Made by a program: the position numbers and the translations under genes. The notes below the pieces were generated by a model. The model made no database searches. It was given only the letters and a program-made list of their open reading frames with translations, and was not told the origin of the DNA. A stretch of DNA of 64,000 bases from Capsulimonadaceae bacterium. GTDB lineage: Bacteria > Armatimonadota > Armatimonadia > Armatimonadales > Capsulimonadaceae. The stretch covers positions 2,048,001 through 2,112,000 of the forward strand of contig OZ244065.1 in assembly GCA_965215505.1 (NCBI GenBank), written 5' to 3'. Numbering within the stretch: the stretch's first letter is position 1; every line of letters begins with the position of its first letter. Shown one piece after another: positions 30,391-64,000 of this stretch.

Positions 30391-30395
30391 GACCC

Positions 30396-41043: not shown

Positions 41044-41084
41044 AGACCCTAGCATACCCGATGCGGGGGGGCGGGGTCAAGGAG

Positions 41085-41235
41085 CCTGCCCCCGGCACAA
41101 GTGCCGCCCCCTCCCTGTTAGGGAAGGGTGAGGATACCGACAATAAATGACCCCCGCTTCTCTATCAAGAGGCAGGGGCCAATTCTCTTTACCCTACCCT
41201 GGCAGGGAGGGGGCGGCACTTGTGCCGGGGGTAGG
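41085..41235. repeat. ~150-bp REPIN/MITE-like element with ~45-bp inverted arms
   Basis: Left arm cctgcccccggcacaagtgccgccccctccctgttagggaagggt; right arm (revcomp) cctacccccggcacaagtgccgccccctccctgccagggtagggt. Confidence 0.85.
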
Positions 41236-41239
41236 TCTC

Positions 41240-44200
41240 TTACAGCGCCGTGAACAGCGGGTTGATGGTCTCGTAGTACAGGTCCGCCGTGCCGTTCCGG
41301 GTGCTGTTCCAGAACAGCCAGACCTTGTGTTCTGTGTTCAGGCCGGCGAACGGGTCCAGGAACGCCGCGACGTTGTTCTCGTTGACAGGCCCGGCGATAG
41401 GCAGGAGAGTGTCAGCCGGGGAATTGAGACCATTTGCGGTGCTGATCGGCGATACGGTTCCGCTGCTGGTATGCTCCTCATCCTGCCACTGGATTGTGTC
41501 CGAAACCGGCGGACTCACGGTGCCGTTCGGGTTGCCTGTCGTGACCGTGTTTGCCGGGGCATAGGTCGCGGTCGCGGTCATGCCTTCAGGGTACGTCCCG
41601 TTCGTGTTGATCGGGAAGTAGATCCGGCCGCGCGCATAATCCACATCCACATACTTCGTGACATCGGTGCCGTTGATCGTGACCGAGTTCAGCAGCAGTG
41701 TCGAGGCTCCGCCTGCCGTTGCGGGAATGCTGTAGCCAATGGGCGACGGCAGGAACAGTGTCAGCCGCTGTGTCTTGTAGTAGATGCTGGCCGGCAGGGC
41801 CGCCCCGCTGGCACCCGACTTGCGCCAGATGTACCAGCGGCGGTCAGCGCGGATGCTGTTCTGGCCTGGGGCATCGTTGGGTTTTGGTGACCCATCCAGG
41901 AACGTCACGGGGCCGGTGTCCGCCTGCGAAGCACCTGGCCCCGGCGTGTAGGTGATGCGCCGGGCGAGCGGGCTGAAGAGGGCCGTAAGCGTTGCCGTTG
42001 TATGAGGCGCACTCGTGAAGCGGACACGCCCGGTCGCCAGGTCAACATAGGCCGTGACGGTCCCATTCGCGGCTATGGCGGGGAATGCCAGAGTCCCCGC
42101 ACTGTTGATGGTTTGGTTCTTCACACCAGTCAGCACCAGGAGACCGCTGGCCTTGTCGAAGACGGCTCGGCTGAACAGAGGCGCATTGTTATTCGCCGTG
42201 TCGTACAGGATCGCGGTTCCGTTCACGAACATGTTGAACTGGCTCGTCCGCGACCAGGCCGCGTCCCGCGCCTGATACCAGCCGTCCGCCTGGCCCGTCG
42301 CCGCCAGTATCTCGGTGACGGCAGGGTACGGGACCAGGTCAAGCTGGTACGGTTTGGGATTGCCCGGAGTGCCGTCCGGCTGATAGCGGCTCTGGTACAG
42401 ATTCACTCTGCCATCCGGCGCGGTGCCACTGTAGGTGACTTCAATGGTTTCCTCGCCCTGATAGCCGTTGGCGGTCAGGACGTTTCCGAAGGTCAGCATC
42501 GGGGCAGCGTCGGCCACGCCCGTCAGCCCCGCCGGGATCGGCAGCAGGCCCGTGGTGGAGGGTCCGGTCGCCGGTATCCAGCTCGTGCCGCCGGGGGCCT
42601 GCGAGTTGTAGTAGATGGCGGAGCGCCCGCGCGTCGTCGCCGTCCAGAACGCCCACAGGTTCGGCGTGGTGTTGGCGAAGGCATTGTCCGTGAACAGGCC
42701 TTTGACGCCGTACTTCACCTGTGTCGGGTCGTTCGTGATCGGCACGGCCGAGCCGAGCGCCCCCGTACCCGCCGTCACCGGATAGTACAGCAGGGTATTC
42801 TGATACGATGCCGTGAGCGGCGGCGATTGGACGTTCACCGAGAACGCCGCGATGCTGCTCAGGTTCAGCGAGTCCTGCGCGATGGTCAGGCCGCTGTTGG
42901 TCCCAGCGTTCGCCGCTAGGACGGGGATGAGTGTGCCGTTTGAGTTGTAGCCCGCCGACTCACTGCCGAGCGAGGTCCACCACTGCGGGACGTAGGTAGT
43001 CGGTGCGGTCGGGTCTACCGGGAGGAACGCGAAGTTGCCGTTCGTGTCCTTGACATACGGCACGAGCGCCTGGTAGATGTTGAACTGCGCGCTGGCGCTC
43101 GTCCCCGCCCCACGCCCACTCGTCCAGTAGAGCGAGAGGTTGCGGGTGTTCGGGTCGCGGTAGGCGGCTGGCGCGAAGTCCGGCACCGGCTTTGCGGCCG
43201 TGTTGTTCGTGGCGGGAATGGCCGGCCCCTGGTCTATTTGCGAAACCGAGCCGTAGGTCAGGCCGTCGGTCATGCGGTCTTCCAAGACTTTGACGTTCAG
43301 CACCGCCGTGTTGGAACTATTAGGCATCAGGCTGACGGGGCTGCCGCCGTTGGACCCGATTTGGATGGTGTCCTGTGGCAGCCCATTGGGCTGTGCCGAG
43401 TAGTTGGGCGTTCCGATGCCGCCGATCGCGCTGCCGTACTGCGGCGGGTAGATCTGAGCCGTCAGCCCGGTGTAGTACCCCTGCAAGTTAGCCGGGGTCG
43501 TAGTAACGACCTTAGGGTAACCGCCCGCATCCAAGCCCTCGAAGAGCTGGATTGCCCCATGGTAGCTGCCGACGGGCATCCCGAACGGAGCGGCGACGCT
43601 GACGAACGGCGCGGTCTTGAAGGGCAGGTTCCCGTTATTGCCGTCCGTGACGTGCGTCGGGTGGTTCGTCGTCGGGACGTCCAGGGTCGCCCCCGGCGTG
43701 TACCCTTCCGGCGAGTCCGGGACGTACAGCGTGGTCGGCTGGCCGCTCCCGACCTGGGCCTTGTGGAAGGTCGCGCCGGGGTAGATGCTGATGAGCGAGG
43801 TGCCCGCAGCATTCGTGCCGGTCGCGATGGCCGGGTTGTGGCCAAAAGCCGCCACCAGGTCACTGTCCAGGGACGACCGGATGAGGTACGGCTCTTCGGG
43901 GACATTGCCGAAGGTGCCCGAGCGCGGCCCCGTCACGGCGTTGTAGTCATAGCCGGGGATGAACGAGGTGACGTCCAGCGCGTCGGAGACGAGCGACAGC
44001 GCCTGCTGGGCGTTGGTCGGCGTACTCTGCTTCTGGTCCAGGTGGACGTTCAGCAGGTTGACGTTGCCGGTGTTATAGATCTTCAGCGGCTTGTAGTAAT
44101 CCTGGAAGGCAAGGTTGAACGGGTCGAAGGTCGTCGTGTTATTGACGCTGTCAGACAGTGCCGCGAACTTGCTGGTCTGGATGCCGAAGCCGCTGGGCAC

Positions 44201-47200
44201 GGAACCCACGTCCACCGTCGAGTCGCCCATCTGGGTGCTGTAGTCCGGCGGGACGCCCGTATAGATGCGGACGTCGCGGTAGGCGGCACCGGGCCGGTAG
44301 AAGCCGGTCTGGTCCGGGATGTAGATGCGCCGGGTGGTCACATACCCCATCGGGAACGTGTAGTTAGCGTTCGAGGTCAGGCTGGTCGGCGGGATCTCCC
44401 CCAGCCCATTGTAGTTGCTCAGGCCGAGCGCATTTGTCTGGCCGGACGAGATGTAGAGCTGCTGGTTGGCAGGCTGGTAGTGCGGGATGCTGACATGGAA
44501 CTGGACCGGGTTGGTGTAGACCTGCCGGCCCGACGGCTCAGTCCCGTTGAGCGTTGCCGGCTTCGCGACGGCGTTGCCCAGGGTCAGGTCCGCGCTGCCT
44601 CCCAGGTAGGGATACAGCGTGGCGGTGACGTCCGAGGTGCCGATGTTCGGGTAGTCTATGCTGGAGTTGATGCTGCCATTCTCGTAGCGGCCCGCCGGCG
44701 GCGGCGTCTCCCACGGCAGGTAGTTCACGACCGAGTCGTGGTCGTGGCCGGGCGTCGCGATGGCGTTCGGCAGGCCCGAGTTGTAGGGAGAGTTATCGTT
44801 CCAGTACAGGCCCGCTCCGCCGCCGGAAACCGTACCAGTCTTGACCCGGAGGCGGTTCAGGCGCTCACCGAGAGCGCTGCGGTCCGCGATGTCCATGGCG
44901 AAGGGAGCATTGAGCCTGCCGAAGTACTCCGCCCCATTCAGGCCGTCGTTGTTGACCCCGAAACCCATCGGGGAAAGGGCCTGTCCCGTCACATCGGAGT
45001 TGTCGCCGCTGCTGTTGTGCGGAACCAGGCTTGTAGACGTGACCACGACATGGGGGCTAGTGGGCGGGTTGGTCAGAGCCAGATTCCGCTTCGTCGGGTC
45101 AATGCCGCCGCCGCCGGAGGTGGAGTCCGGCGGGGTGACCAGGACATCGTTGCCGTTCGACAGCGCCTCCAGATCGAGCTTGTCGTTGCCCGCGACCAGC
45201 GGCGAGGTGACGGCCCGGAAGGGACCCAGCTCATCCGCGATTGGGACGGCATAGGTCTTCGTCGTCGGAGTAAGCGGGAGCGGGATGCCTCCCGCGCGGA
45301 TGGCCAGCGGGTTCAGGATGCCGAAGACTGGCTCATCCACCGGCTGAACAATGGTCTGCTGCGGCTGGTAGCCGGTGATCACCCCATTCGCGCCATAGAT
45401 CGGCTTAGGAATCTCGTTGCCGTTGGTCGTCTGGACGGCAATGACTGCCGTGCCGGTCTTCGTGAAGTTTTGGCCGTCGTAGTTGTAGACCGTGACCGTT
45501 TGCTTCGCGTTGGTAATGTGGCGACGCGCGCCGGGCGTGTTGCGCCGAGCCGTCCCGTCACTGATGGCATATGTGTACGCACCGATGTACCCCGCTTTGG
45601 AGGGGTTAGCGGTGGTCGGCACGTTCACCAGAACGCCGTCCGCATTGGTGACCGGGTCGCCCCGCTGGTAGAAGCCGTTGTTGAGCGGCGTGTTCGTCGT
45701 CGTCAGCAGAACGGCCGGCACGGTGCCATGGTCGGCGGCCGTCAGGGTGGCAGCCGCTGCGGCTGCCCCGGTGGCCGTTGTGGGGGTGTCTATGGTCGTG
45801 TCGGAAAGGTCGAACTCGATGGGTCCGCCGTTTCCGTAGACCTGCACCGGATTTGCCGGGCTGGGGGTTGTGGTGTTGCCGCTGTCCATCACATAAACGG
45901 GATTGCCCTTAGCATCAGCCGGCGGGACGACGTTCTTGAAGCGGATGTAGACGCTCTGGCCCCAGTCGTAGACCGGCAGGGGGGCACCCGCCCCGACCTT
46001 AAGCGCAGGCGGGATGGCGGCGCTGGTGCTGCTAGCACTCGCGGGGTCGTCGTTGACCAGGTAAACCTGCATGATTGCTTGTAGGTCCACCGCACCGGGG
46101 GCGTCCGGGTTAGCGGGTACGATGCTGCCGAGCGCGATGGGAATGCCCGTGTCGGTCAGGTCATAGGGCGTGATGCCCCGGCAGAAGCCGGTGCCGCTGT
46201 CGCCGACATAAATCCAGTCGGTGGTATTGGTGGGGTAAGTATAGCCCACCGGCACGCCCGTGCCAGGCGGGGTCGTGAACAGGTCGTAGGTGTCCGCCGA
46301 AGAGAGCGCGGGCGAGGAGATCGGGCCGAAGCCGGTGTACGCTTTGTTCTCCCGGATGAGCGGGAATTCCTGACCGGTGATCGGGTTGGAGATCGGCGTG
46401 GCACTGAAGTCGTACAGCGTGTTGCCGCCGACGACGTAGATCGCGCCGCCGTTTCCGCCGCTGGTGGATGTGTTGGTGATCAGAGCGGGCGAGGACTGGA
46501 AGATGCTGCCGTCCGGCGAGATCTGGCGGTAGATCAGGTTGCTGGCATCATCGGTGCCATGAACGTCAACCGCATACAAGGCGGTGTCGTTGACGCCGCG
46601 CGTCGCGACGTAGAGCATGGGAACGAACCCACCCTTGACGTCTCCTGCCACGGAGTCGCCGTGAGTGTAGGCGGTGCCGTCGGCATACTGAATTGTCGTG
46701 GGGAACTGGACGAAGCCCATGGCCGGGGTCGCCCGCAGGAACGCGCCAATGGGCGGCCCCGGCTCCGGGGTGCGGTCGAGGGCGGCGTTGTTCGGGTCGT
46801 TCGCCAGCGGGTAGGACCAGACCGCGCTTCCCGACACGGGCACGCCGGTGCCATCCAGGTTGACGGCCCAGATGCGGCCCGTTTCGGTCTCATCAGGCCG
46901 GGCGGAGGCCACCGTGCCGGCGGCAGCGGTGTAAGGCACTTCCAGGCCGGAGTTTGCCGCGAAGTAGATGCGGGTCCGGGTGGGCGCGGTCGCCGACTGG
47001 TGCGGCGAGTCGGTGAAGACGACGGGCGAGCCGGTGATATTCCCCAGCGCGGGCCGGGGCAGCTTGTTGGAGCTGGTGTTACGACCGCCTTTAGTCGTGT
47101 CGTAGGCGTCCGGGAAGGACCAGTCGAATGTATCGGTCACGCTGGTCTGCGGGCGCTGGCCGATGTTATAGTTGGACGAGCCTGGGCCGGTATAGTTCGC

Positions 47201-50065: not shown

Positions 50066-50085
50066 AGGCGGGGGTCCCTGGAAGT

Positions 50086-50253
50086 GGGACCCACCCCGCC
50101 GCGAGCGGCTTCCCCTCCCGAAACGGGTGGGGGCAGAGGGGCGATATCTGGGAGGCTCTTGCTGACCGAAGAGACGCTGCTTAAAGATGTTCCTAAACTC
50201 CTCCCCCACCCGATCCGGGAAGGGGGGGCGACTTGTCGCGGGGCGGGGGTCCC
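50086..50253. repeat. Second REPIN/MITE-like inverted-repeat element
   Basis: Arms gggacccaccccgccgcgagcggcttcccctcccgaaacgggtggggg and (revcomp) gggacccccgccccgcgacaagtcgcccccccttcccggatcgggtggggg; architecture shared with 41085-41235. Confidence 0.7.
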
Positions 50254-54755: not shown

Positions 54756-54765
54756 AAGAAGAACC

Positions 54766-54793
54766 CCCTAGCCCCCATTTCTGGGGGGATAGG
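54766..54793. repeat. Short REP-like palindrome overlapping the RBS region
   Basis: cctagcccccatttctggggggatagg. Confidence 0.45.
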
Positions 54794-54860
54794 AAACGAA
54801 AAGCCGAGAAGAAGTGATGACAGGTGGGACGCGCCCGCGCCGGGCGGCTGCCAGACCGGG

Positions 54861-57800
54861 CTACTGCAAGAGCGGCGGCTCGCTGCTCTGGCCCGCGAAC
54901 AGCAGGGCAGTCGAGACGGGCAGTTTGGGCGAGAACGGCAGGGGCCGGCCATACGGGTCGCTCCGCAGATAGTGGGCCTGGGTGGTGACCGAGCCGACCG
55001 TGGTCTGCGGGGCATACGGGTAGCCCGCCTGCGGGTTATAGATGATCTGGAGGCCGATGCCCGGCTTGCCGCCGGGGTTGCCGTTAGCGTCCCGGAGCAG
55101 GTGCCCCGCCGACTCCAGAGACGTACCGCCTCCGGCCGACGCCAGCGCGTGGTAGCCGTGGAACTGCGGTATCCAGCCCCACTTGAGCATCCACGCGGTC
55201 TGGTCGGCCACGTCCACCGGCTGCGCCTCGGAAACGGCCCCGTCAATGATGATCTTCATGTCAATCGGCTGCCCGTAGAACGGGAAGTGCGAGTCGGCGT
55301 AGTTCGCCCGCTGCCCGCCCGGATTGGCAGTTGTCACGGTCGGCGCGAACAGGTCCAGGCCGTCCGAGGTGTCGTTGTTAAACCAGTTGCCGGGGATGAC
55401 GAAGAACGAGCCGGTCTGGGCGTACAGGACCGCCTCGATCCGGACGTCCATCGGCAGGATCGCCACCCGCCTCAGATTCAGGTCCTGGGCGGCGGTCGGG
55501 TCGAGGCGCGTCACCAGCAGGCGCGTGTCGCTCCCCACGAGGGAGTTCAGGGCGGTGGACGTCGGGATGCTGTAGTCCACGACGCCGGGATTGGTGAGGT
55601 CGAGGAACTGGAGGCCCGGCAGGGGCGCGAGCGGCGGGCTGCCCGTGAGGCTGCCGGCATCGAAGGACGGGGTATAGACCGCCGTGTTGCCCGCTCCGTC
55701 CAAGGCAAAGGGAAGGACGCCCGCACCGCTCACCGGCGGGCGGATGCTGTAGCCGGTCACCGGGTTCACGATGTCGAAGTCGGCCAGGGTCAGGCCGGTG
55801 TCCCCCGGCTCGGCGCTGACATACAGGCCCAGCGAGTTGCCGCCATAGGCGTTGCTGGGAGTGACCCCGCTGGGCAGGCCGAAGTTGATCTCCTGGATGA
55901 GCTGCCGCTCGTCCTGGCCCAGGGTCACATGGTCCCCGGTGGCGGTCGGCGCGGACGTGCCGAGCGGGTTGTCGTCGGACTTCGGCCCGGCCAGGAACTG
56001 CGTCGTGTTGACGCACACATAGTCGTGGGCCAGGACGGTGATGGTCGTGTCCGGGTTGCCTTTCAGCAGGCTGCCGTCAATGTACGCCGTCCCGTTCGTC
56101 ACGATGGTGATGTGGCGCGGGTACTTGTCCCCGGCCAGCAGCGTCGTGTCCTGGCTGGTCGGGTCAGCGCTGCCGACGCCGTGGATGCGCGCGTTGCCTT
56201 CGGCGTGGATCAAGACGTCATTGTCCGGGTTCAGCCCCTTGTAGTTCGTCGTCTCGGTCGCCGGGTCATTGCTGGCGTTGATGTCGTCATAGAGTACCGT
56301 TTGGCTCCCGGCGCTGCCCGCCGTGCCGTCCGGGTTGGGGAACTTGTCGTCGGTCAGGGTCATCCGAATGCCGTAGGTAGAAGCGTATTTGTGCTTCGTC
56401 TGGTCTACGTTCATGCGCCCCAGGGTGATGTTGACGCCCGGCGGGTCGTAGAACTGGCCGTTCCAGCCGCCCTTGCCGTTCCCCTTGTCCGCGTTCTCGG
56501 GCGTGTCGTTAAGCCACTGGTCCACCAGGGTGCTGCCGCCGCCGATGGAGACGCTGTTGGGCTGGATGTCGTTCGGGTTGTTGATATAAATGCTCTGACC
56601 ATAGCCAAACTTGCCCGACCCGGCGGGATATGTCTGGGTCGCGCCCGCGCTGTCCACATAGGTGCGCGGCGGCGAGGTCATGGCGATGGCCTTGTAGCGC
56701 GGGAGCTGCGAGGACGACTCGACGGTGTCCATGCGCGGCGGCTCCAGCCGCCCGATGCTGCGCGGCTGGCCAGCGGCATCGGTCTGCGAGGAGCCGTCCC
56801 GGACGAGGCCGTTTACGGTGCTGAAGCCGCCGTTGCTGCCCGCGCCGCCCGTGTCGTTACTGGGCACCACGAACAGGTTGAAAGTCGGCGTGGCCGGAGC
56901 CGTCGGCGCAGGGTTTGCCGTCAGCTTGGTTAGGTCAACCGGGTTGATCTCCACCGAGGCCCGCTGGCCCTGCGTGGCACCAGTGTTGGTCGTGAAGAGG
57001 GGCTGACCCTGCGTGTAGCCGTTCAACAACAGATCGCCCGCGACTTCAAGGCCGTCCTGATAGAGCGGCGCATCCACACCCGCATTGTTCAGGTAAAACA
57101 GGTTCTTGCCGAAGAAGCGTACCGGCATGTTCGCGTGGAACGAGCCGCCGCCCGCGATAAACTTGGGCGTGGAGGACGTATCAATAAATGTCCTGGCCCC
57201 CGCCTGCGGGTTAGGAATGACCTGGCCGCTGCCGGGAACGACCTGATACGCATCCGCCGCCCCGTAGGTGGTGAAGATCGGGTAGATGTGAGGTAGCGGG
57301 AAGCCATTCGCAACAGGATTGCCGCTCCCATCCACCAGGATGGGGGTATTCGGGTTGGCCGGGTCTACGAAGAAGTCATACGCGCCCGCCGTGGCGATCC
57401 CGCCGTCAGTGTCCTGGGCGTAGAACCGGCTGGTGACGCCCATGTCCGCCGTCGTCGAGCGGTTGTCCGGGTTGGTTTCAAACCGGGCATAGTCGGTGAT
57501 GCCGATGGGCTGGTAGGCCACCTGATACGACTGCAAGCGGTCCGAGCTGCGGTTGTTGCCGTAGGTGGTGGGGTCGCGCGGGTCGATCACGCCTTCGCGG
57601 CCGATGGACTCGATCTTGATGTACTTGCCCGGCGGGATGGCGACGGGGGCACCGCTGCCGAACACGGGGTCATAGTAAGGGCTGGTCGCCGAGGTCCGGA
57701 CGAGAACCGGGGTGTAGGTGAGACGCAGCAGGAAGCGGCCCGCGCCGGTGTTGTAGCGCGCGAACCCTGCCTCCAGATATTTGGCATCCGGGTCGGTTGG

Positions 57801-58178
57801 GTCGGGTGCGGACAGTCCGTTGGCGGCCACGGCGTTGGTATAGCGGGCCAGTTCGCGCTGCTCGGTCGGCGGGGTCAGCAGGGTGTTCTGGAGCGGCGGA
57901 CGCCAGTCCGCGCCGTCCATGCTGTTGGTGAGCTGGGCGTCGGCGAACGTGATCCCCGCCTTGGCGTACTGGTCGGCGGTGACGGTGCGGGCGGAATGAC
58001 GGGCGTTCAGCAGGTTGCGGGCGACGATGGTGACGAACAGCGCCCCGGCCAGCCCCAGCAGCAGCAGCACCAGCAGGGCGATGACGATGGACTGGCCGCG
58101 CCGCAGGGCGCGGCGTCGGGCGGGGCCGCGCCGGCGGGTGGGTTTTGCAGGGAACATCGTTGTTTGTGCTTGATGCAT
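54861..58178 (-). CDS. Giant PilX/GspK-like minor pilin (1105 aa)
   Basis: Class III signal RRG|QSIVIALLVLLLLGL lacking Glu5, as in PilX/GspK; A...AKAGI helix; YIKIESIG strand; beta-solenoid-like C-terminal motifs. Confidence 0.75.
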   Translation of the reverse strand: MHQAQTTMFPAKPTRRRGPARRRALRRGQSIVIALLVLLLLGLAGALFVTIVARNLLNARHSARTVTADQYAKAGITFADAQLTNSMDGADWRPPLQNTLLTPPTEQRELARYTNAVAANGLSAPDPTDPDAKYLEAGFARYNTGAGRFLLRLTYTPVLVRTSATSPYYDPVFGSGAPVAIPPGKYIKIESIGREGVIDPRDPTTYGNNRSSDRLQSYQVAYQPIGITDYARFETNPDNRSTTADMGVTSRFYAQDTDGGIATAGAYDFFVDPANPNTPILVDGSGNPVANGFPLPHIYPIFTTYGAADAYQVVPGSGQVIPNPQAGARTFIDTSSTPKFIAGGGSFHANMPVRFFGKNLFYLNNAGVDAPLYQDGLEVAGDLLLNGYTQGQPLFTTNTGATQGQRASVEINPVDLTKLTANPAPTAPATPTFNLFVVPSNDTGGAGSNGGFSTVNGLVRDGSSQTDAAGQPRSIGRLEPPRMDTVESSSQLPRYKAIAMTSPPRTYVDSAGATQTYPAGSGKFGYGQSIYINNPNDIQPNSVSIGGGSTLVDQWLNDTPENADKGNGKGGWNGQFYDPPGVNITLGRMNVDQTKHKYASTYGIRMTLTDDKFPNPDGTAGSAGSQTVLYDDINASNDPATETTNYKGLNPDNDVLIHAEGNARIHGVGSADPTSQDTTLLAGDKYPRHITIVTNGTAYIDGSLLKGNPDTTITVLAHDYVCVNTTQFLAGPKSDDNPLGTSAPTATGDHVTLGQDERQLIQEINFGLPSGVTPSNAYGGNSLGLYVSAEPGDTGLTLADFDIVNPVTGYSIRPPVSGAGVLPFALDGAGNTAVYTPSFDAGSLTGSPPLAPLPGLQFLDLTNPGVVDYSIPTSTALNSLVGSDTRLLVTRLDPTAAQDLNLRRVAILPMDVRIEAVLYAQTGSFFVIPGNWFNNDTSDGLDLFAPTVTTANPGGQRANYADSHFPFYGQPIDMKIIIDGAVSEAQPVDVADQTAWMLKWGWIPQFHGYHALASAGGGTSLESAGHLLRDANGNPGGKPGIGLQIIYNPQAGYPYAPQTTVGSVTTQAHYLRSDPYGRPLPFSPKLPVSTALLFAGQSSEPPLLQ

Positions 58179-58196
58179 GGTGTGCTTGGAGGGGCC

Positions 58197-60398
58197 TTAC
58201 CCCCGGTTGCTGTTGCCGATCTTGATCTTGGTCTCGCTCGGGATGACCTGCGCCCGGTTGTTGGAGATGTCGTAGATGCGGACGCCGATGCTCACATCAA
58301 TCAGGTCGCGCGTCTGATAATCCACCTTCACCTGCATCGGCAGGTAGGTATTGTCGGCAACGGGGGGACTTGCGTTGGTCTGGCCGTAGGAATACGGCTT
58401 CGTCGGGTCCATCAGCGCCATATTAGATTGGTAGTCGTAAACGACCACGATCTGCTTGGTGGCGCTCGTTGAGGCCGGCTGTATCAGTGCCAAGGCTTCC
58501 GGGGAGACTTTAATCGTGTTGGCGGAGTAATCCACATAGTACTGGTTGCCCGTGACGTCCGCGACCGAGTTCACCGGCGTGTAGGGCACGACCTGTCCGT
58601 TGCCCGGCCCCGATGTCGTGTCCGGCCCGGTCACGCGAATGCCGCCGGGGATGATGTGCGCGTTCCTGACGCCCGTTTGGCCGGTGGCACCGGGGGCAAA
58701 TTGCAAGTTCGTCAGCGGCGAGTCCGTGAGCTGAACAGGGTTCGACGCGGGCTTTGTCAGGTCAATCAGGCCGGTCGGGTCTACGCCGCCCAGGTTAGGG
58801 TTGGCGGGGTCCAGGACCGGATAGGGCCAGTTACGGTTGTTCCGACTGGTCGGCCCGCTGGGGAAGGACGGCGTGCCGAAGATCAGCGTGCCGGTGTCGG
58901 GGTTGACCGTCAGCGGGACGAAGTCGGTGCCGCCCAGTTTGTAAGCGCCGGAGCCAGCATCTTGCAGCGGGTAGCCTTTCGAGATGTTGTAGACCAGCGT
59001 GGTCGTCGCGCCGCCGCTCGTGTGGCTGAACTCCAGGAGGTCGCCGGCCGAGTAGAGCGGCGGGCTGTTGACCGTATCGTTGATGGACGAGATCTGCGTG
59101 TCGTAATACTCCTGGGTCCCGTTGTAGTTGCCGGGGTACAGGCTGACATGGTACGGCAAAGCCCAGGACTTGCCGGCCGACGTGTAGGTGGTCGGGACAT
59201 AGCCATAGCCCGTGGTGCCGTCGAGCGTCGGCAAGGCCTGATTATTAGCGTCCGCGGTCGTCCCCGGCGTGGCGTCGCCGCTGACGGTCCCCGCGCGGAA
59301 CGTCACGCTGGTATTGACGATGGGATAATCCTTGTTGCCGACGGGATCATGGGCCGAGCCGCTGTGGGCGATGCCGGGGAACGCCTGGGTCGCGGTGTCA
59401 TAGACCAGCGTGTTGTTCGCGTTGTGCGGCAGCAGGATCAGATCAATGTTCGGGCCGGGGATGACGGGCTTTGCGATAGAGCGCCACATCTCGACCCGAT
59501 TGTTGTGCTGGGCGGCGGAGCCAGGTGTTCCTGTCGTGCCAATGGCATCTTGTGCGCCGAAAGCACCATGAGCATCGTCCAGCCAGTTTACGTCAGTAGG
59601 CTTCACATAGCGAAAAAAGTCAGGGTCGTCCAACTCAGGAACCTTATTGCCGTTCGCATCGACCTTCGTTCCCGTCGCAAACAGTTGGGTGTTCGCTTGC
59701 TGAGTCACTTTTCCAGTAACTGGGTCTGTCACGCTTTTGTAAGGCTGGAACTGTGCGCGGTACAGAATATATGTATTGTCATTGCCGTTGGACTTCGCCT
59801 CGCGCACGTTGTTGTATGGTACGGAAGGATCTTTGAGGCCGACCCAGTAGCGCGTCACGGTCGTACCGGCGGCAAGGGGAAAGACGAAAGCGGGGTCGCT
59901 GATGATCGCCGAGCCGTTCTGCGACTGCCGGTAGGTGATCGGCTCCCCTGTGGTCGGATCAATCTGCGTCGCCGAAGAGGAAACCGACTTCGGCTGGGCG
60001 AAGTCCAGCTTGCAGGCATAGGCGTGGGCGATGGTGGACGTGTAGGCCCCGGTGGCAGGGACGATGCCCGGTATCTCCAGGTCCAGGAAGTTCGTATAGC
60101 GGTCGTCGCCGGGCTGGGGCTGGTTCGCGGTGACGAACGGGTGGGAGGTGCCGTCGAAGACGAACAGGGCGCTGCCCAGCTCGCGCGTCAGCCGCTCCCG
60201 CGTGGACCGGGCTGCGTCCTGGGCGGCCGTGATGATCTGGGCCTGCTGCGTGTAGCGGATGGCACTGACGAGCGGGACCAGGAGCAGGGCGAACAGGACG
60301 GCGGTCAGGCCGATGACGATCAGCAGCTCGATGAGCGTGAAGGCCCGTTCCATGGACGCTTTCGGCTGCGGACGAACGGTTGTGTTCATAGCGTTCAT
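58197..60398 (-). CDS. Giant PilW/GspJ-like minor pilin (733 aa)
   Basis: RA|FTLIELLIVIGL prepilin motif; QDAARSTRERLTRELGSA helix typical of PilW/GspJ; C-terminal IDVSIGVRIY...TKIKIGN strands. Confidence 0.8.
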   Translation of the reverse strand: MNAMNTTVRPQPKASMERAFTLIELLIVIGLTAVLFALLLVPLVSAIRYTQQAQIITAAQDAARSTRERLTRELGSALFVFDGTSHPFVTANQPQPGDDRYTNFLDLEIPGIVPATGAYTSTIAHAYACKLDFAQPKSVSSSATQIDPTTGEPITYRQSQNGSAIISDPAFVFPLAAGTTVTRYWVGLKDPSVPYNNVREAKSNGNDNTYILYRAQFQPYKSVTDPVTGKVTQQANTQLFATGTKVDANGNKVPELDDPDFFRYVKPTDVNWLDDAHGAFGAQDAIGTTGTPGSAAQHNNRVEMWRSIAKPVIPGPNIDLILLPHNANNTLVYDTATQAFPGIAHSGSAHDPVGNKDYPIVNTSVTFRAGTVSGDATPGTTADANNQALPTLDGTTGYGYVPTTYTSAGKSWALPYHVSLYPGNYNGTQEYYDTQISSINDTVNSPPLYSAGDLLEFSHTSGGATTTLVYNISKGYPLQDAGSGAYKLGGTDFVPLTVNPDTGTLIFGTPSFPSGPTSRNNRNWPYPVLDPANPNLGGVDPTGLIDLTKPASNPVQLTDSPLTNLQFAPGATGQTGVRNAHIIPGGIRVTGPDTTSGPGNGQVVPYTPVNSVADVTGNQYYVDYSANTIKVSPEALALIQPASTSATKQIVVVYDYQSNMALMDPTKPYSYGQTNASPPVADNTYLPMQVKVDYQTRDLIDVSIGVRIYDISNNRAQVIPSETKIKIGNSNRG

Positions 60399-60399
60399 G

Positions 60400-62382
60400 T
60401 TACTGCGCCCGGTTCAAGACGGTGTCCACGCTGTGGACTTTGAAGCGGTCGCGCTCTTTCCAGGCGACGACGGACCGGACGGACAGCCCGCGCACGGCGG
60501 TGACGGTGACCTGAGAGACGGTCGGCCCGCCCGTGGAGGTCGTCGGCAGGCCGCCGGTGAGCGTTGGGTCGGTCAGGTTGACGGTGACGTAGTTCGTGGC
60601 TCCCAAGGTCGTCACGACGGGCGAGATGGCGATGGTGCCGGCGAAGGTCTTGAGCTGCGACGCACTCCCAGTGGTGAGAAGGTAGGTGCCGTCGATCTCG
60701 ACGGACTTCTCGGCGTCGGAGCGCGGGAAGTAAAGGTTCTGCGTCCCGCTGTTCGACTGATCCACAGCGTACTGTCCGGGCTGTAGCATCGGGTCGTTTG
60801 CCCCCGTCACGATGGTCGGACTCTGGGTGTAGTAGCCCGGTGCCTTCTGCACGGCCACGGTCCAGTCTTCGTCGCCCACATAGAAGAGGCGGATGCGATG
60901 AGTCTTCGGCGTTTTGTCGTTTGGGTTATCACCGAATGCGTTGGAACCAATTGTCACGCGACCCGTCGAGAAGCTAACACTTATGTACGTCTTCGGGTCT
61001 GGGCTTGGCCCTTGTACATCTTCATCCCAGATGTTGCCTTGCGTGGCTGTCGGGTCCACGACGGGAGTAGCGGGGCCGGCCACCTTCCCAGTGTCCAAGT
61101 CCAGGGCAATCATGCTCAGAAAGCTGTTCGGGATCAAACCCGTGTAAATGGAGTTGTCCGGATTGTTATCACCCGCCCGCTTCAAGTTTTTGAGCGTCAG
61201 GCGCGTCGCCGTCGTGTCCGTACCGCTTAGAGCGGGAATGTCCCGGTCCTCATGCAGCACCTTCCAGCTATAAGTCAGGTATGAAATCCGGGCTTTGAGC
61301 GCGTTGCTGCCGGAACCACCCGCCCCGAGAGGGTTGAACACGATTCCACCGACGTTCGCCAATGAGTTTCCTGACCCATCCATGATGTTGGGCGAGGTCA
61401 AGGTGAACTCGTAAGGGTCCGCGTCGAAGCCGTAGGGGTTGGCGGCAGTGACGGCCCCTGTGGGGGCCTTGAAGGCCCGGTACAGCGTCACGGCCTTCCA
61501 CGGGAGCGGCGGTGTGCCGGGGGAGGCACTCGTGTTGTATTTGTATGTAGTGCCCGAAGCGGCCGTGTTCGTACCGGCGGGGTCAAACCAGCCGCCGTTG
61601 TAGTAGGTTTGCGAGTCCGCGAAGTAGGGCGGGTGCGCGCCGTAGCTATAATCGTGCGGGTCGGTGGTCGCAGGGGACCCGCCATTGCCGGAGGCCGGCA
61701 CGGTAAAGTTCAGCGTGTACACCCGATCCGTCTTCGTTGTGGGGTCGGTGGCGACGACCAGCAGCACGAAGGGCTGGCTGTAGGTCTGTGCGTAAGGCAC
61801 GGCGACTTTGCCGTCGGTGTAGTCCACCAGGAGCCGCTGCTGCCCTGGGAAGATCGTCGCCTGCGGGTAGTCCGGGGTCGCCGACAGGGCATCATTGAAG
61901 TTGCCGGGCGAAGCCTGCCAGTAGGTGCTGTTGATCGAAAGGTAGCTCGCCAGGTTGGTGGCGGTCATGGCGACCGGCATCACGATGGGACCGTAGTTGA
62001 CGACATAGATGGACTGGCGGGTCGCACCCGTCGCCGCCGGGACGGTGATTGTCTCGTTGTTGATGACGCGGGCGTTGTCCAGCAGCGTCGGGTCATCGGG
62101 GTCATAGTTTGCATCGGCGGCGGAGGCCAATGTCAGGTCCTTCGTGGACGAGTTGATCGGCAGGATGGACTCGGGCAGGTTCGCCGTGTTCTGCGTCTGG
62201 GTCTGCACGGCGGCCTGACCGAGACTATCGGCCAGGGCGGAGTTGCCGACGCTGGTGATGGAGAAAAAGCCGCTGGGGTACAGGCGCACGATGATGAGGA
62301 TGCCCAGCACCAGGAGTACCAGGACGACCAGGACCTCGATCAGCGAGACGCCGCGCCGCGTTCGTTTTCGCATTTTTCCCAT
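60400..62382 (-). CDS. Giant PilV/GspI-like minor pilin (660 aa)
   Basis: RRG|VSLIEVLVVLVLLVLGIL prepilin motif; directly upstream of the PilW-like gene; C-terminal VRSVVAW strand. Confidence 0.78.
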   Translation of the reverse strand: MGKMRKRTRRGVSLIEVLVVLVLLVLGILIIVRLYPSGFFSITSVGNSALADSLGQAAVQTQTQNTANLPESILPINSSTKDLTLASAADANYDPDDPTLLDNARVINNETITVPAATGATRQSIYVVNYGPIVMPVAMTATNLASYLSINSTYWQASPGNFNDALSATPDYPQATIFPGQQRLLVDYTDGKVAVPYAQTYSQPFVLLVVATDPTTKTDRVYTLNFTVPASGNGGSPATTDPHDYSYGAHPPYFADSQTYYNGGWFDPAGTNTAASGTTYKYNTSASPGTPPLPWKAVTLYRAFKAPTGAVTAANPYGFDADPYEFTLTSPNIMDGSGNSLANVGGIVFNPLGAGGSGSNALKARISYLTYSWKVLHEDRDIPALSGTDTTATRLTLKNLKRAGDNNPDNSIYTGLIPNSFLSMIALDLDTGKVAGPATPVVDPTATQGNIWDEDVQGPSPDPKTYISVSFSTGRVTIGSNAFGDNPNDKTPKTHRIRLFYVGDEDWTVAVQKAPGYYTQSPTIVTGANDPMLQPGQYAVDQSNSGTQNLYFPRSDAEKSVEIDGTYLLTTGSASQLKTFAGTIAISPVVTTLGATNYVTVNLTDPTLTGGLPTTSTGGPTVSQVTVTAVRGLSVRSVVAWKERDRFKVHSVDTVLNRAQ

Positions 62383-62440
62383 ACCGCTCTTGCTGTCTTT
62401 CGTGTACCGAATGACTGAAACCTCGGAGCCTGAACGGCGA

Positions 62441-63394
62441 CTACTGCTGCAACGGGAAGCGCCAGAAGGTGTTCACACCCTCTTGGACTTGGAAGTCTTC
62501 GGCCTTCAATTTCCGAACCGCCCCACTCTGGAACATGACCAGCACCTTGTCTGCATTGTGGACATGGTACGAAGTCAGCATGATGACTGTGTCAGCGGGT
62601 GGATTCTGCCACCGCAGTTGCCGCCTGTAGTCGGCTTTCATCTGATCGGTACTGAGTACAAGACTCGGATCGCAGTACTTCGGAGGGTAATTGGCAGAGG
62701 GATTTGCCGGCGGTGGTGGGCAGACTGTTCCCTCATGGGCAAGTTGGTATCGGGGCAGAAACGTAGCCCCTACCTGATTGCCTGCCGTGACGACGGGGCC
62801 ACTGTCGTAGGCATCCAGCTTGAAAAAAGTGCGGTTCGTCGCCACGACTTGTCCCGCATCGGCAGTACTACAGGCGCTGGTAACATTGCCATTAAGTGCC
62901 TGATCGTTACTGGAGTTGCAGGGCGCAATCATGTTTACCGTCAGGGCAGAAGTAACCTGCGGCGTCGCATTCACGTCTAGATCGTTGTTGGGATCGGTGA
63001 ACTCGTTCGGGTCCTTGATGTAGGCGGGATACAGGCCGGGGAAGGCAATCTGGGTCTGCGTAGTGCCATTCTTGGCGTCATAAGCCTGCGCCTTTGCCAA
63101 AGCGTTCCCCAAGTTCGTGCTTGAGTCCGTGTAGCCGCCGGGGATGGCATAGCCGAACAGCACGTCCGGGTATCGGTGGTTGTCCAGCTTGTACTGCTCC
63201 ATCTTCTGCTGGATGTCCTTCATGTTGGAGATGGCGACGCTCTGGCGCGAGCCTTCCCGGACGGAGGCGAAAACGGGCAGCAGGATCGCCGTGAGAATCG
63301 CTATGATGGCGATGACGACGAGCAGTTCGATCAGCGTGAAGCCGATGGTAAAGCCGGGGGTGAAACCACGGGGACGGCGGCGCGAGGGTGCCAT
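62441..63394 (-). CDS. Type IV pilin/pseudopilin with N-terminal methylation motif (317 aa)
   Basis: G|FTLIELLVVIAIIAILTAILLPVF, then SNMKDIQQKMEQYKLDNHRYP; four Cys in the variable part; AGGAG RBS. Confidence 0.9.
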   Translation of the reverse strand: MAPSRRRPRGFTPGFTIGFTLIELLVVIAIIAILTAILLPVFASVREGSRQSVAISNMKDIQQKMEQYKLDNHRYPDVLFGYAIPGGYTDSSTNLGNALAKAQAYDAKNGTTQTQIAFPGLYPAYIKDPNEFTDPNNDLDVNATPQVTSALTVNMIAPCNSSNDQALNGNVTSACSTADAGQVVATNRTFFKLDAYDSGPVVTAGNQVGATFLPRYQLAHEGTVCPPPPANPSANYPPKYCDPSLVLSTDQMKADYRRQLRWQNPPADTVIMLTSYHVHNADKVLVMFQSGAVRKLKAEDFQVQEGVNTFWRFPLQQ

Positions 63395-63470
63395 GATGAT
63401 GCTCCTGGATCGAGTGAAAGGGCAGGCGATGTGTGCCTCCCGCAGCCACGGACAAGTGTAACTGCTGGTT

Positions 63471-63496
63471 GACGACGTGAAAACCAGGAATGTTCC
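63471..63496 (-). promoter_or_regulatory. Putative ECF-sigma promoter of the pilin operon
   Basis: Minus strand GGAAC-N17-CGTC, ~77 nt upstream of the pilin ATG. Confidence 0.45.
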
Positions 63497-63540
63497 CGGC
63501 TCACGGAAAAAGTTTCAGGTATTTTTGGCTGTGAAACGGC

Positions 63541-64000
63541 TTAGAAGCCGAAGAGGCCCGCCGGGGCGGCACCGGTCGTGTCCAGGCCGCCAAGGAACCG
63601 TCCGACATACCAGGCGGCGACGGCGTGGCCGTAGAACAGAGCGAGCAGCGCCCCGATCGCCATGGAGGGGCCAAAGGGCATGGCGACGCGTTCGCCCAGC
63701 CGCCGCCGCTGGCGGACCAGGATCACCATCCCGGCCAGCCCGCCCGCGCCGATGGCGAAGAGGAGGGAGCCGAAGGCCAGGCTCAGGCCGATGTTGGCCC
63801 CGATAAGGGCGGCAAGCTTGCCGTCGCCGCTGCCCATGCCGCCCGCGTCCTCGTCCTCCTCGATCTCCTCGCCGGTGAAGCCCTCCAGGGCCGGCTTCGC
63901 GCCCCAGCGCGCCTCGACCCAGCGGCGCACGGGGGGGATGAGTGTCCCCAGATAGTACAGGCTGTTGTAGGCCCAGTCCTCGGCATTGTCGCGCAGGTAG
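63541..64000 (-). CDS. pilD: Prepilin peptidase (A24 family), 3' part
   Basis: GMGSGDGKLAALIG (second catalytic Asp motif) and MPFGPSMAIGA; the frame stays open to the window edge. Confidence 0.9.
   Translation of the reverse strand, partial: YLRDNAEDWAYNSLYYLGTLIPPVRRWVEARWGAKPALEGFTGEEIEEDEDAGGMGSGDGKLAALIGANIGLSLAFGSLLFAIGAGGLAGMVILVRQRRRLGERVAMPFGPSMAIGALLALFYGHAVAAWYVGRFLGGLDTTGAAPAGLFGF

Follow-up and report, generated by a model that had tools for sequence, protein, structure and literature searches.

An uncharacterised, enlarged version of the type IV pilus tip design in Armatimonadota

The window analysed here, a 64,000-nucleotide stretch of contig OZ244065.1 from a Capsulimonadaceae bacterium of the phylum Armatimonadota, ends in a run of seven genes read from the minus strand (Table 1). 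An earlier note on this DNA had described these genes as co-oriented, with only 1-58 bp between the pilin genes, and the gaps computed from the ORF coordinates show that it was right: taken in order from pilD to the 2989-aa gene they measure 146, 58, 1, 18, 105 and 43 bp, of which the 58-, 1- and 18-bp gaps separate the pilin genes. The same note had read four class III prepilin signals, the fourth without Glu5, followed by exported proteins of 1500 and ~2940 aa. Indeed, we found leaders in all four proteins, with Glu5 missing from the 1105-aa one, and the two exported proteins are 1500 and 2941-2989 aa long, the shorter value for the giant last gene corresponding to an alternative start at Met49 (position 50065).

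Table 1. Genes of the pilin locus, listed from pilD onwards (positions are those of the window)
Feature	Position	Strand	Basis or remark
Prepilin peptidase gene pilD, 3' part, 152 aa within the window	63541..>64000	-	gene runs on past the window
Type IV pilin, 317 aa, G|FTLIELLVV	62441-63394	-	ORF + N_methyl
Minor pilin with Glu5, 660 aa, G|VSLIEVLVV, PilV/GspI position	60400-62382	-	ORF + TIGR02532
GspJ/PilW-class minor pilin (from model), 733 aa, A|FTLIELLIV	58197-60398	-	ORF + AF2 model
GspK/PilX/ComZ-class cap pilin (from model), 1105 aa, G|QSIVIALLV, without Glu5	54861-58178	-	ORF + AF2 model
Exported protein, 1500 aa, PilY1 position	50253-54755	-	ORF + PQQ_2
Exported giant protein, 2989 aa from GTG	41240-50209	-	ORF + Golvesin_C

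The fragment of pilD that lies within the window gave no Pfam match by itself; the whole frame (L004:541-2157, minus strand) matched A24_N_bact with an E value of 4.4e-32 and Peptidase_A24 with 26.0 bits against a cut-off of 26.5. Directly upstream and on the same strand, the genome encodes a T2SSE+MshEN protein (E 4.7e-140), a second T2SSE ATPase, a T2SSF protein (E 2.7e-66) and this A24 peptidase, such that pilB, pilT and pilC lie immediately outside the window. A pilM-pilN-pilO-(386 aa)-secretin cluster is located at 6.09 Mb of the same genome, and all of the type IVa pilus machine parts PilB, PilT, PilC, PilD, PilM/N/O and secretin were found. The PilB/PilC machinery presupposed by the earlier note is therefore present, both genes being upstream, together with PilT, PilD and the pilM-N-O-secretin cluster. 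Other loci of the genome hold small GspG/H/I-like pilins beside a platform protein and a secretin at 4.84 Mb, and further small pilin genes lie at 5.396-5.399 Mb. By tblastn (E<1e-6), each of the five large genes is present only once. A promoter and terminator scan of positions 40800-55000 returned 8 terminator-like sites against a shuffled expectation of 8.0, and the scan thus does not inform the operon ends. Long plus-strand ORFs contained in the giant genes, such as that of 948 aa at 43238-46084, were rejected as genes because they are antisense to conserved frames in DNA of 65% G+C. Pfam annotates next to nothing in any of the five large proteins.

The locus recurs across the phylum. Of 10 genomes representing 10 families, 9 retain the order and sizes of the six genes that follow pilD, the tenth (G173) being without a match for the last gene; this synteny within Armatimonadota fits the earlier proposal of a lineage-specific set. 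Homologues of the cap pilin, in frames of about 900-1150 aa, were found in 38 of 41 relatives and, across a phylum-wide sample, in 147 of 151 genomes; all five genomes examined from divergent families have one too, in frames of 841-1410 aa. The 1500-aa protein was matched in 39 of 61 genomes, adjoining the cap gene wherever both places were listed, and the C-terminal part of the 2989-aa protein in 21 of 61. Both counts come from single-protein queries and are lower bounds, since G061 was missed by the 2989-aa query although blastp found the protein there. Orthologues of the 2989-aa protein, present in 9 of the 10 genomes, range from 2170 to 3590 aa. The giant proteins are much more divergent than the pilins, with 24-35% identity and patchy matches. 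In every stretch that reaches the relevant position (8/8), a PilT-type second ATPase lies between pilB and pilC.

The 317-, 660- and 733-aa proteins each have a short basic leader and a hydrophobic α1N containing Glu5, and the leaders of the pilins are predicted from sequence to be substrates of PilD, the gene for which adjoins. The 317-aa pilin passed Pfam N_methyl (22.6 bits, cut-off 21.2), and both it and the 660-aa protein passed TIGR02532, the latter with 16.6 bits against a cut-off of 16.3. The first 60 aa of the 317-aa pilin are GspG-like (E 9.3e-13, below cut-off), and a scan of 10 orthologous proteins, drawn from 9 of the 10 genomes, gave a GspG-like N terminus in each, again below cut-off. 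All 10 genomes have a pilin at this position, 242-343 aa long. The protein could be the major pilin or hold the GspH/FimU position, and it may belong to the core minor pilins, as a fourth, rather than being the major one. The 660-aa protein scored 20.9 bits with N_methyl, slightly below the cut-off of 21.2, and 9 of its 10 orthologues matched at E<0.01. Its N and C termini are its best-conserved parts, its family profile matched only pilin α1N segments among PDB sequences (E 0.05-0.6), and it is assigned to the PilV/GspI position by gene order only.

The 733-aa protein also fell slightly below the N_methyl cut-off (19.0 bits against 21.2); N_methyl was found in 9 of its 10 orthologues, and the classical Glu5 motif is carried by 117 of 120 homologues. 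Among gspJ/PulJ sequence models it matched only PRK08808 (E 0.043, 12.9 bits against a cut-off of 295), and NCBIfam gave a weak match to HpsC (E 0.045). One homologue carries the source name "PulJ/GspJ family protein". The AF2 model (pLDDT 75.6) contains a helix at residues 22-75 and core strands at 79-254 and 685-726, with an inserted region of ~430 aa. In a wide search with VIA-align, the five best of 48,161 chains were all pilins: TTHA1219 (Z 9.9, 139 aligned residues, rmsd 4.6), XcpW (Z 8.9), EpsJ (Z 8.0), Streptococcus sanguinis PilB (Z 7.8) and GspJ (Z 7.2). Four of these, TTHA1219, XcpW, EpsJ and GspJ, are J-type. The pilins were found only by VIA-align, the Foldseek rows for this model against the PDB being noise. 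As modelled, the pilin core of the 733-aa protein is of GspJ/PilW type.

Glu5 is absent from the mature N terminus of the 1105-aa protein itself and of all 10 orthologues. Among 265 homologues, 241 have the pattern G/A-Q-(S/T/A)-hydrophobic and none has the Glu5 motif. The protein gave no match in Pfam, N_methyl included, or in NCBIfam at E<=0.1; T2SSK and PilX_N are absent from it and its 10 orthologues, and the cap-family profile retrieved nothing from PDB sequences at E<=10. The AF2 model (pLDDT 79, pTM 0.85) has a helix at residues 26-85 and a last strand at 1094-1097 and, like the 733-aa model, displays the pilin fold, in which a long N-terminal helix lies against an antiparallel sheet. 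ComZ was the top Foldseek row (E 2.2e-3), neither model having a row against the PDB at E<=0.001. By structural alignment the model resembled ice-binding proteins (Z 9.8-7.9 over model residues 224..1057) and CBM36 (Z 7.4-7.8), with a jelly roll at about residues 729-909. Matches to ComZ had middling Z values, 7.7 (302 aligned residues) and 7.2, and the match to GspK had a likewise middling Z of 7.0 (95 aligned, model 60..1100).

These comparisons suggest that the 1105-aa protein is a Glu5-less cap pilin in a GspK/ComZ-like frame, in which an ice-binding-type β-solenoid and a CBM-like jelly roll appear to be inserted before the last strand of the pilin core. The GspK and ComZ alignments extend to model residues 1093-1102, and the last strand seems to be supplied in cis; a PilY1-type strand in trans is thus not obviously needed. 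An LPV..LLY.G-like C-terminal motif is present in 214 of 253 full-length homologues of the cap pilin. The earlier note had proposed that the enlarged proteins retain a pilin core, with large domains inserted between the helix and the C-terminal strands, and a pilin core is present in both models, that of the 733-aa (J/PilW) and that of the 1105-aa (K/ComZ) protein.

The Sec signals of the two giant exported proteins were read by eye from the sequence. The 1500-aa protein comprises, in order, a DUF4159/ThuA-like N-domain, a PQQ-like propeller, an NHL-like region and a conserved C-terminal tail. Pfam returned PQQ_2 (E 2.9e-10, residues 356-426) and a weak match to NHL, the ESM-Atlas neighbours were PQQ/BamB-like propellers (0.90-0.91), and 7 of 10 orthologues matched DUF4159 at E<0.01. 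The tail motif L.QP.(F/Y)ADR occurs in all 11 family members, its Pro being invariant. For the 2989-aa protein, Golvesin_C (E 1.6e-10, residues 495-642) was the sole Pfam match above cut-off; hhalign revealed PQQ-like blades and, in the C-terminal part, successive blade-like repeats that extend to the very end of the protein. Internal repeats lie at 706-731/849-875 (97%) and at 2509, 2719, 2789, 2853 and 2961 (up to 72%), and the final 40 aa form the best-conserved window (0.43 identity). This conserved C terminus was considered as an outer-membrane β-signal and rejected, because the aromatic residue is not terminal in orthologues. Searches of PDB sequences yielded only a weak NHL match for the 1500-aa protein (E 0.043) and nothing at E<=1 for the 2989-aa protein, the last 1190 aa of which gave an uninformative best score of 0.77 in the ESM Atlas. 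Compared by hhalign, the two families have nothing in common beyond a PQQ-like blade motif of 21 residues (probability 48%), and no shared order of domains emerged.

The description of both as β-propeller proteins, made in the earlier note, accords with the PQQ_2, NHL and ESM-Atlas signals of the first and the blade motifs of the second. These propeller signals are PQQ_2 and NHL, not PilY1-type: PF05567 (PilY1/PilC) is absent from both giant proteins at E<=0.1 and from 10 orthologues of the 1500-aa protein at E<=0.01. The first giant gene lies directly downstream of the K-class pilin gene in the locus itself and in 10/10 genomes, and the observation that two proteins rather than one stand at the PilY1 position holds beyond this genome, the first being kept in all 10 genomes and the second in 9.

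No close sequence match to any characterised system emerged from the Pfam, NCBIfam and PDB sequence searches, and no description of the enlarged Armatimonadota tip gene set was found in the literature searched. The earlier statement that no characterised system with this architecture is known needs qualifying, as ComZ, PilX/HpsA, MshQ and CpaL are precedents for parts of it. The closest known systems are those of Thermus and of cyanobacteria. In Thermus, PilA1-PilA3 include the best match of the J-class pilin, TTHA1219 (5G23), and where the cap gene is last among the pilin-like genes, in a locus whose order we take to be pilA1-pilA2-pilA3-comZ-pilA4. Giant cap pilins with an inserted solenoid have precedents in Thermus thermophilus ComZ (PDB 6QVI), which combines a GspK-like core with an ice-binding-type β-solenoid before the last strand (PMC6561018, available in part), and in the enlarged cyanobacterial PilX/HpsA family (PMC13759059, available in part). 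However, the solved ComZ chain has 518 residues, compared to ~1100 aa here, and shows no sequence similarity; in addition, the locus differs from that of Thermus in having extra nested β-sandwich domains in the modelled cap, giant pilins at the I and J positions and two giant exported proteins after them. Cyanobacterial core minor pilins likewise include a PilW with a long α-β loop, but, according to the accessible part of PMC13759059, cyanobacteria generally lack a PilY1-position protein, whereas two conserved giant ones are present here. Unlike the cyanobacterial sets, the Armatimonadota pilins sit in a pilBTCD operon.

With the type IVa tip complexes FimU-PilV-PilW-PilX-PilY1, PilHIJK-PilC and MshDOP-MshQ, the locus shares the order I, J, Glu5-less K and then a large non-pilin protein, as well as the conserved C-terminal end of that protein and T4aP-type motor genes. 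It differs in the size of the pilins, which is 3-6 times greater, in having two large proteins where those complexes have one, in the absence of PF05567 and in a K subunit that probably supplies its last strand in cis. The final ~10 residues of PilC/PilY1 extend the PilK-class pilin by one strand, the same being predicted for MshQ, and MshQ and CpaL are precedents for large non-PilY1 tip partners (PMC13533445, available in part). CpaL/TadG (Tad) and S. sanguinis PilB/PilC resemble the proteins described here in that large functional domains are attached to a pilin module or inserted in it, the C-terminal strand returning to the pilin domain (same source, in the part available), but they belong to Tad and monoderm T4P machines, contain other inserted folds and are smaller. 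The locus is thus an uncharacterised, enlarged version of a known type IV pilus tip design.

We consider it likely that the region constitutes the distal two thirds of a type IVa operon, pilB-pilT-pilC-pilD-pilin-660-733-1105-1500-2989, encoding an enlarged priming and tip module. By analogy with the GspIJK/PilVWX model, PilD would cleave the leaders of the three large pilins, which would then come together through their N-terminal helices, seated on the PilC platform and topped by the Glu5-less subunit. This complex would prime polymerisation of a major pilin by PilB, pass out through the secretin at the pilus tip and be pulled back by PilT. The two giant propeller proteins would stand in for PilY1 and MshQ and bind the cap by their conserved C-terminal ends. 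The large outer domains would serve adhesion, perhaps to polysaccharide, as the CBM-like and Golvesin_C folds hint. Counted against the tip module are the middling fold matches (Z 7-10), the lack of a PilY1/PilC family match in either giant protein and the passage of 150-300 kDa proteins through the secretin that it would require. A bolder form of the proposal, which we put forward tentatively and would sooner doubt than accept, is that both giant proteins are true tip subunits docked by their C-terminal ends on an already complete ComZ-type cap, rather than by a PilY1-type strand in trans, and that together with the three giant pilins they form a ~7,000-residue polysaccharide-binding assembly that is the standard tip of the whole phylum.

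The pilins could instead form a priming and tip module without the giant proteins, the latter being co-transcribed secreted or surface proteins such as adhesins, polymer binders or exported cargo. Such a role would suit proteins that lack a PilY1 domain, have diverged far more than the pilins and contain DUF4159/ThuA-like, PQQ, NHL and Golvesin_C parts, all common in free surface proteins, and the cap pilin, on its model, appears to complete its sheet in cis. We nevertheless regard this as rather unlikely, because the positions of both after the cap pilin are kept in all or all but one of the 10 genomes and because conserved C-terminal ends on variable bodies are the pattern of PilC/PilY1 tails (PMC13533445 and PMC13711793, each available in part). 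More doubtful still is a short pseudopilus like that of the T2SS or the cyanobacterial Hps (EPS) system, serving to export protein or polysaccharide, in place of a long adhesive retractile pilus. The PilT-type ATPase between pilB and pilC argues against this, and the genome has the other small-pilin loci with platform and secretin at 4.84 Mb. The fold matches do include the T2SS pseudopilins XcpW, EpsJ and GspJ for the 733-aa protein and GspK for the 1105-aa protein, the first 60 residues of the 317-aa pilin resemble GspG, and T2SS has been assigned to Armatimonadetes by Denise et al. (PMC6668835, available in part); the weak matches to HpsC and to Verru_Chthon cassette proteins, however, cover only the N-terminal helix and fall far below cut-off.

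A competence pilus for DNA uptake, with the 1105-aa protein as DNA receptor as proposed for ComZ, has in its favor that ComZ is the closest solved whole-protein match of the 1105-aa model and that ComZ binds DNA (PMC6561018, available in part). This likeness is at the level of fold only, and the extra jelly roll of the 1105-aa protein resembles carbohydrate-binding modules. Moreover, of the two kinds of cyanobacterial PilX distinguished in the accessible part of PMC13759059, a compact Com-type and an enlarged EPS-type, the 1105-aa protein is of the enlarged kind. A competence pilus therefore seems very unlikely to us, and an enlarged priming and tip module remains the preferred reading.

Minor pilins and PilY1 determine the adhesion target of the type IV pilus and whether the pilus can be built at all. 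Armatimonadota appear to take the enlarged-tip design furthest, as their J-class, K-class and I-position pilins are all enlarged and the adhesin position is held by two giant non-PilY1 proteins. Because this poorly studied phylum, which has cultured members in the genera Capsulimonas, Fimbriimonas and Chthonomonas (PMC4072686), keeps the layout over most of its breadth, it offers a natural test of three questions: what limits of mass apply to a pilus tip and its secretin, how general strand addition is, and to which targets these saccharolytic bacteria attach.

The pilus genes in the window form the distal part of a single ten-gene operon, as the rest of pilD, pilC, a PilT-type ATPase gene and pilB are found on the same strand immediately outside the window. 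The intergenic gaps from pilD to the gene for the 2989-aa protein are, in order, 146, 58, 1, 18, 105, and 43 bp. The genome is a single contig of 6.18 Mb, which also carries a second machinery cluster. The earlier note had held that its proposal of an enlarged filament tip would fall if the genome lacked PilB/PilC machinery; in fact, pilB, the PilT-type gene, pilC and pilD adjoin the locus, with a pilM-N-O-secretin cluster at 6.09 Mb, and the machine encoded is a type IVa pilus. From its first start, the pilD frame (L004:541-2157 of a fetched stretch, minus strand) encodes 538 aa and overlaps pilC (L004:1581-2837) by 577 bp. Because pilD orthologues are only 282 to 493 aa long and align from about residue 192 to 208 of this frame, the true start is probably ∼200 codons downstream. 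Elsewhere in the window (29128-31361, plus strand), an FGE-sulfatase/DinB_2 protein is encoded beside a histidine-specific methyltransferase (Methyltransf_33, E 9.7e-114), a pair that resembles the EgtB–EgtD ergothioneine pair.

Features of the pilus operon, its flanking genes and the second machinery cluster (window positions unless stated otherwise)
Feature	Position	Strand	Orthologues in synteny sample	Remarks
shikimate dehydrogenase gene				next after pilB
pilB	just outside window	same strand		T2SSE E 4.7e-140, MshEN
PilT-type ATPase	just outside window	same strand		460 aa
pilC	just outside window	same strand		T2SSF E 2.7e-66
pilD, remainder	just outside window	same strand		A24_N_bact E 4.4e-32
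pilD, last 152 codons	63541..>64000	minus		ORF reading
317-aa pilin	62441-63394	minus	242-343 aa	
660-aa protein (first large pilin)	60400-62382	minus	540-764 aa	
733-aa protein (second large pilin)	58197-60398	minus	571-724 aa	
1105-aa protein (cap pilin)	54861-58178	minus	906-1109 aa	
1500-aa protein (first giant protein)	50253-54755	minus	1437-1872 aa	
2989-aa protein (second giant protein)	41240-50209	minus	2170-3590 aa	from GTG; 2941 aa if Met49 (50065) is the start
ppx	39436-41055			next gene after 2989-aa gene
pilM-pilN-pilO-(386 aa)-secretin-second pilB cluster	6.09 Mb of genome			
second PilB-type ATPase, 621 aa	L118:2015-3880 (fetched stretch)	minus		T2SSE and MshEN; directly after secretin of pilMNO cluster, HDOD protein next

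Read from the translations, the prepilin leaders are G↓FTLIELLVV (317 aa), G↓VSLIEVLVV (660 aa), A↓FTLIELLIV (733 aa), and G↓QSIVIALLV (1105 aa), the last with Ile at the Glu5 position. Against the Pfam N_methyl cut-off of 21.2 bits, the 317-aa protein scored above, the 660-aa and 733-aa proteins slightly under (20.9 and 19.0 bits, respectively), and the Pfam scan gave no match in the 1105-aa protein; TIGR02532 placed both the 317-aa and 660-aa proteins above cut-off. At the sequence level, the relatives make this pattern, Glu5 in the 660-aa and 733-aa proteins and none in the 1105-aa protein, firm: N_methyl matched at E<0.01 in 9/10 orthologues of each of the former and 0/10 of the latter, and the classical Glu5 motif is present in 117 of the 120 homologues of the 733-aa protein in the database. 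Among 265 homologues of the 1105-aa protein, 241 carry a G/A-Q-(S/T/A)-hydrophobic motif and none the Glu5 motif, bearing out the earlier reading of a fourth pilin-like product without Glu5.

The predicted structure of the 733-aa protein (36 sequences; pLDDT 75.6) has a helix at residues 22 to 75 and core strands at 79 to 254 and 685 to 726. Foldseek found nothing for this model, and a wide VIA-align search of 48,161 chains ranked five pilins first, four of them of the J class (TTHA1219, Z 9.9; XcpW, 8.9; EpsJ, 8.0; Streptococcus sanguinis PilB, 7.8; GspJ, 7.2). The model of the 1105-aa protein (37-sequence alignment; pLDDT 79, pTM 0.85) contains a 60-residue N-terminal helix (26 to 85), a sheet (140 to 224) and a final strand (1094 to 1097). 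In Foldseek, no row reached E≤0.001; the first was Thermus ComZ (E 2.2e-3). With VIA-align, ice-binding-protein solenoids ranked first (Z 9.8, 9.4, 9.1, and 7.9; model 224 to 1057), with matches also to CBM36-type jelly rolls (Z 7.4; residues 729 to 908), ComZ (Z 7.2, 264 aligned) and GspK (Z 7.0, 95 aligned, model 60 to 1100); Foldseek's own matches re-scored at Z 7.7 for ComZ (302 aligned) and 7.8 for CBM36. In ComZ itself, an ice-binding-type solenoid sits ahead of the final strand of a GspK-like core (PMC6561018). Since the Z values are all middling, we regard the model-based assignments, the 733-aa protein to the J class and the 1105-aa protein to the K class on the ComZ plan, as well supported, not proven. 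Both models gave pilin-type matches, where lack of a pilin core had been named as counting against the proposal.

In profile searches against PDB sequences, the cap family had no match at E≤10, J-family matches were confined to α1N of full-length pilins, and neither class was linked to known families at this level. From gene order alone, the 660-aa protein is assigned a putative PilV/GspI role. A C-terminal motif is conserved in 214 of 253 full-length cap-pilin homologues; this terminus seems to lead back into the pilin core, and the cap probably completes its own sheet in cis, like GspK, ComZ, and CpaL.

Neither giant exported protein matched the PilY1 family. The 1500-aa protein contains a PQQ_2 propeller stretch (E 2.9e-10) and an NHL-like region, and its N-domain is DUF4159/ThuA-like (7/10 orthologues at E<0.01, two of these above cut-off). 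A variable-length linker precedes its C-terminal tail, L.QP.(F/Y)ADR, present in 11/11 family members with the Pro invariant. In the 2989-aa protein, a Golvesin_C domain is accompanied by PQQ-like blades at 706 to 731 and 849 to 875 (hhalign 97%) and blade-like repeats at ∼2509, 2719, 2789, 2853, and 2961 (hhalign, up to 72%); because this run reaches the C-terminus, the protein ends in a propeller with its last blade at the terminus, resembling PilY1 in outline. Its best-conserved window is the last 40 residues (0.43 identity). Both proteins are Cys-poor, with T/S/N/G/A/P making up 55 to 56%. They share conserved ends on variable bodies with PilC/PilY1 tails (PMC13533445, PMC13711793) and with the prediction for MshQ (PMC13533445). 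A complication is that the cap pilin's own C-terminus is conserved and its sheet probably already complete in cis; should the giant proteins dock on this subunit, their mode of docking may not be that of PilY1. Plus-strand ORFs inside the giant genes (e.g., 43238-46084, up to 948 aa) were rejected as genes, being antisense to conserved frames; their translations are rich in Arg/Gly/Val, and they are likely an artefact of 65% G+C.

Homologues of the 1105-aa protein occur in 38 of 41 relatives, and a sample across the phylum gave them in 147 of 151 genomes, in frames mostly of 900 to 1150 aa; in the families with the weakest matches (five genomes), frames were still 841 to 1410 aa. Among 1.84 billion cluster representatives, 872 matched the profile at E≤0.001, of which 502 did so at E≤1e-30. 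By title, the 80 best genome loci belong almost entirely to Armatimonadota (Capsulimonadaceae, Armatimonadales, Fimbriimonadales, Chthonomonadales), three being oddly labelled MAGs; where a source names the protein, it uses "hypothetical protein" or a generic prepilin name. Cap-pilin contigs L057, L100, L107, and P0186 are filed as Janthinobacterium lividum, Sedimentisphaerales, and Propionibacteriaceae MAGs, and such labels on contigs with an Armatimonadota-type cap pilin probably reflect mis-binning or mislabelling. One genome, G083, has two separate giant cap-pilin-like frames (C1:2762076-2763554 and 2946133-2947323; 1281 and 1410 aa).

Synteny across Armatimonadota, a check proposed in the earlier note, was compared by blastp over 40 kb around the cap gene in 10 genomes from as many families, or over 26 kb in G086, where the contig ends. 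Gene order from pilD onward was the same in 10/10 genomes, the last gene being without a match in one (G173), and the upstream motor genes were present wherever the stretch extended to them (pilC in 8/10). In G061, two tandem pilin genes (L023:14680-16653) occupy the place of the single 317-aa-type gene. Single-protein searches placed the 1500-aa protein in at least 39 of 61 genomes; with the last 1190 aa of the 2989-aa protein as query, at least 21 of 61 matched. Both counts are lower bounds because G061 was missed although blastp had found the gene there. In the Capsulimonadaceae genome, each of the five large genes is present only once.

A regex scan of this genome gave 89 prepilin-like ORFs, some false, of which 68 encode 200 to 399 aa; the 660-aa and 733-aa proteins are the only ones longer than 600 aa. 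Resemblance of the 317-aa protein to GspG is confined to its first 60 residues, and this protein may be the major subunit or a fourth core pilin in the GspH/FimU position. Small classical pilins of 143 to 197 aa at 0.05, 4.84, and 5.40 Mb (e.g., C1:52609, 4841654-4842431, and 5396011-5399139) could include the true major pilin. N-methyl-coding DNA occurs in at least 40 places, and another prepilin peptidase is encoded at 2.935 Mb. Twelve T2SSF matches, representing six platform genes, together with six secretin matches (sites at 0.69, 2.007, 2.113, 2.65, 2.94, and 4.84 Mb) indicate several type IV filament systems.

Full-text literature searches on Armatimonadota with PilY1 or minor pilins, and broader ones, turned up no description of the system, nor did passages of PMC4072686, PMC11071339, PMC11696919, and PMC6668835; the Fimbriimonas genome paper reports fimbriae and 79 PulG-like genes without mentioning the large pilins or giant proteins. 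By fold, the module is closest to ComZ and TTHA1219 of Thermus and to the set with enlarged PilX (HpsA) of cyanobacteria (PMC13759059). Compared with ComZ, the 1105-aa protein is twice the size, with sandwich domains nested inside. Four features set the present locus apart: the J- and K-class subunits are enlarged, as is the I-position pilin of 660 aa; the cap holds nested CBM-like domains; the adhesin slot is taken by two giant non-PilY1 proteins; and the whole is fixed in the pilBTCD operon across the phylum. By analogy, we infer that the large-pilin module would work like the GspIJK/PilVWX–PilY1 priming and tip complex.
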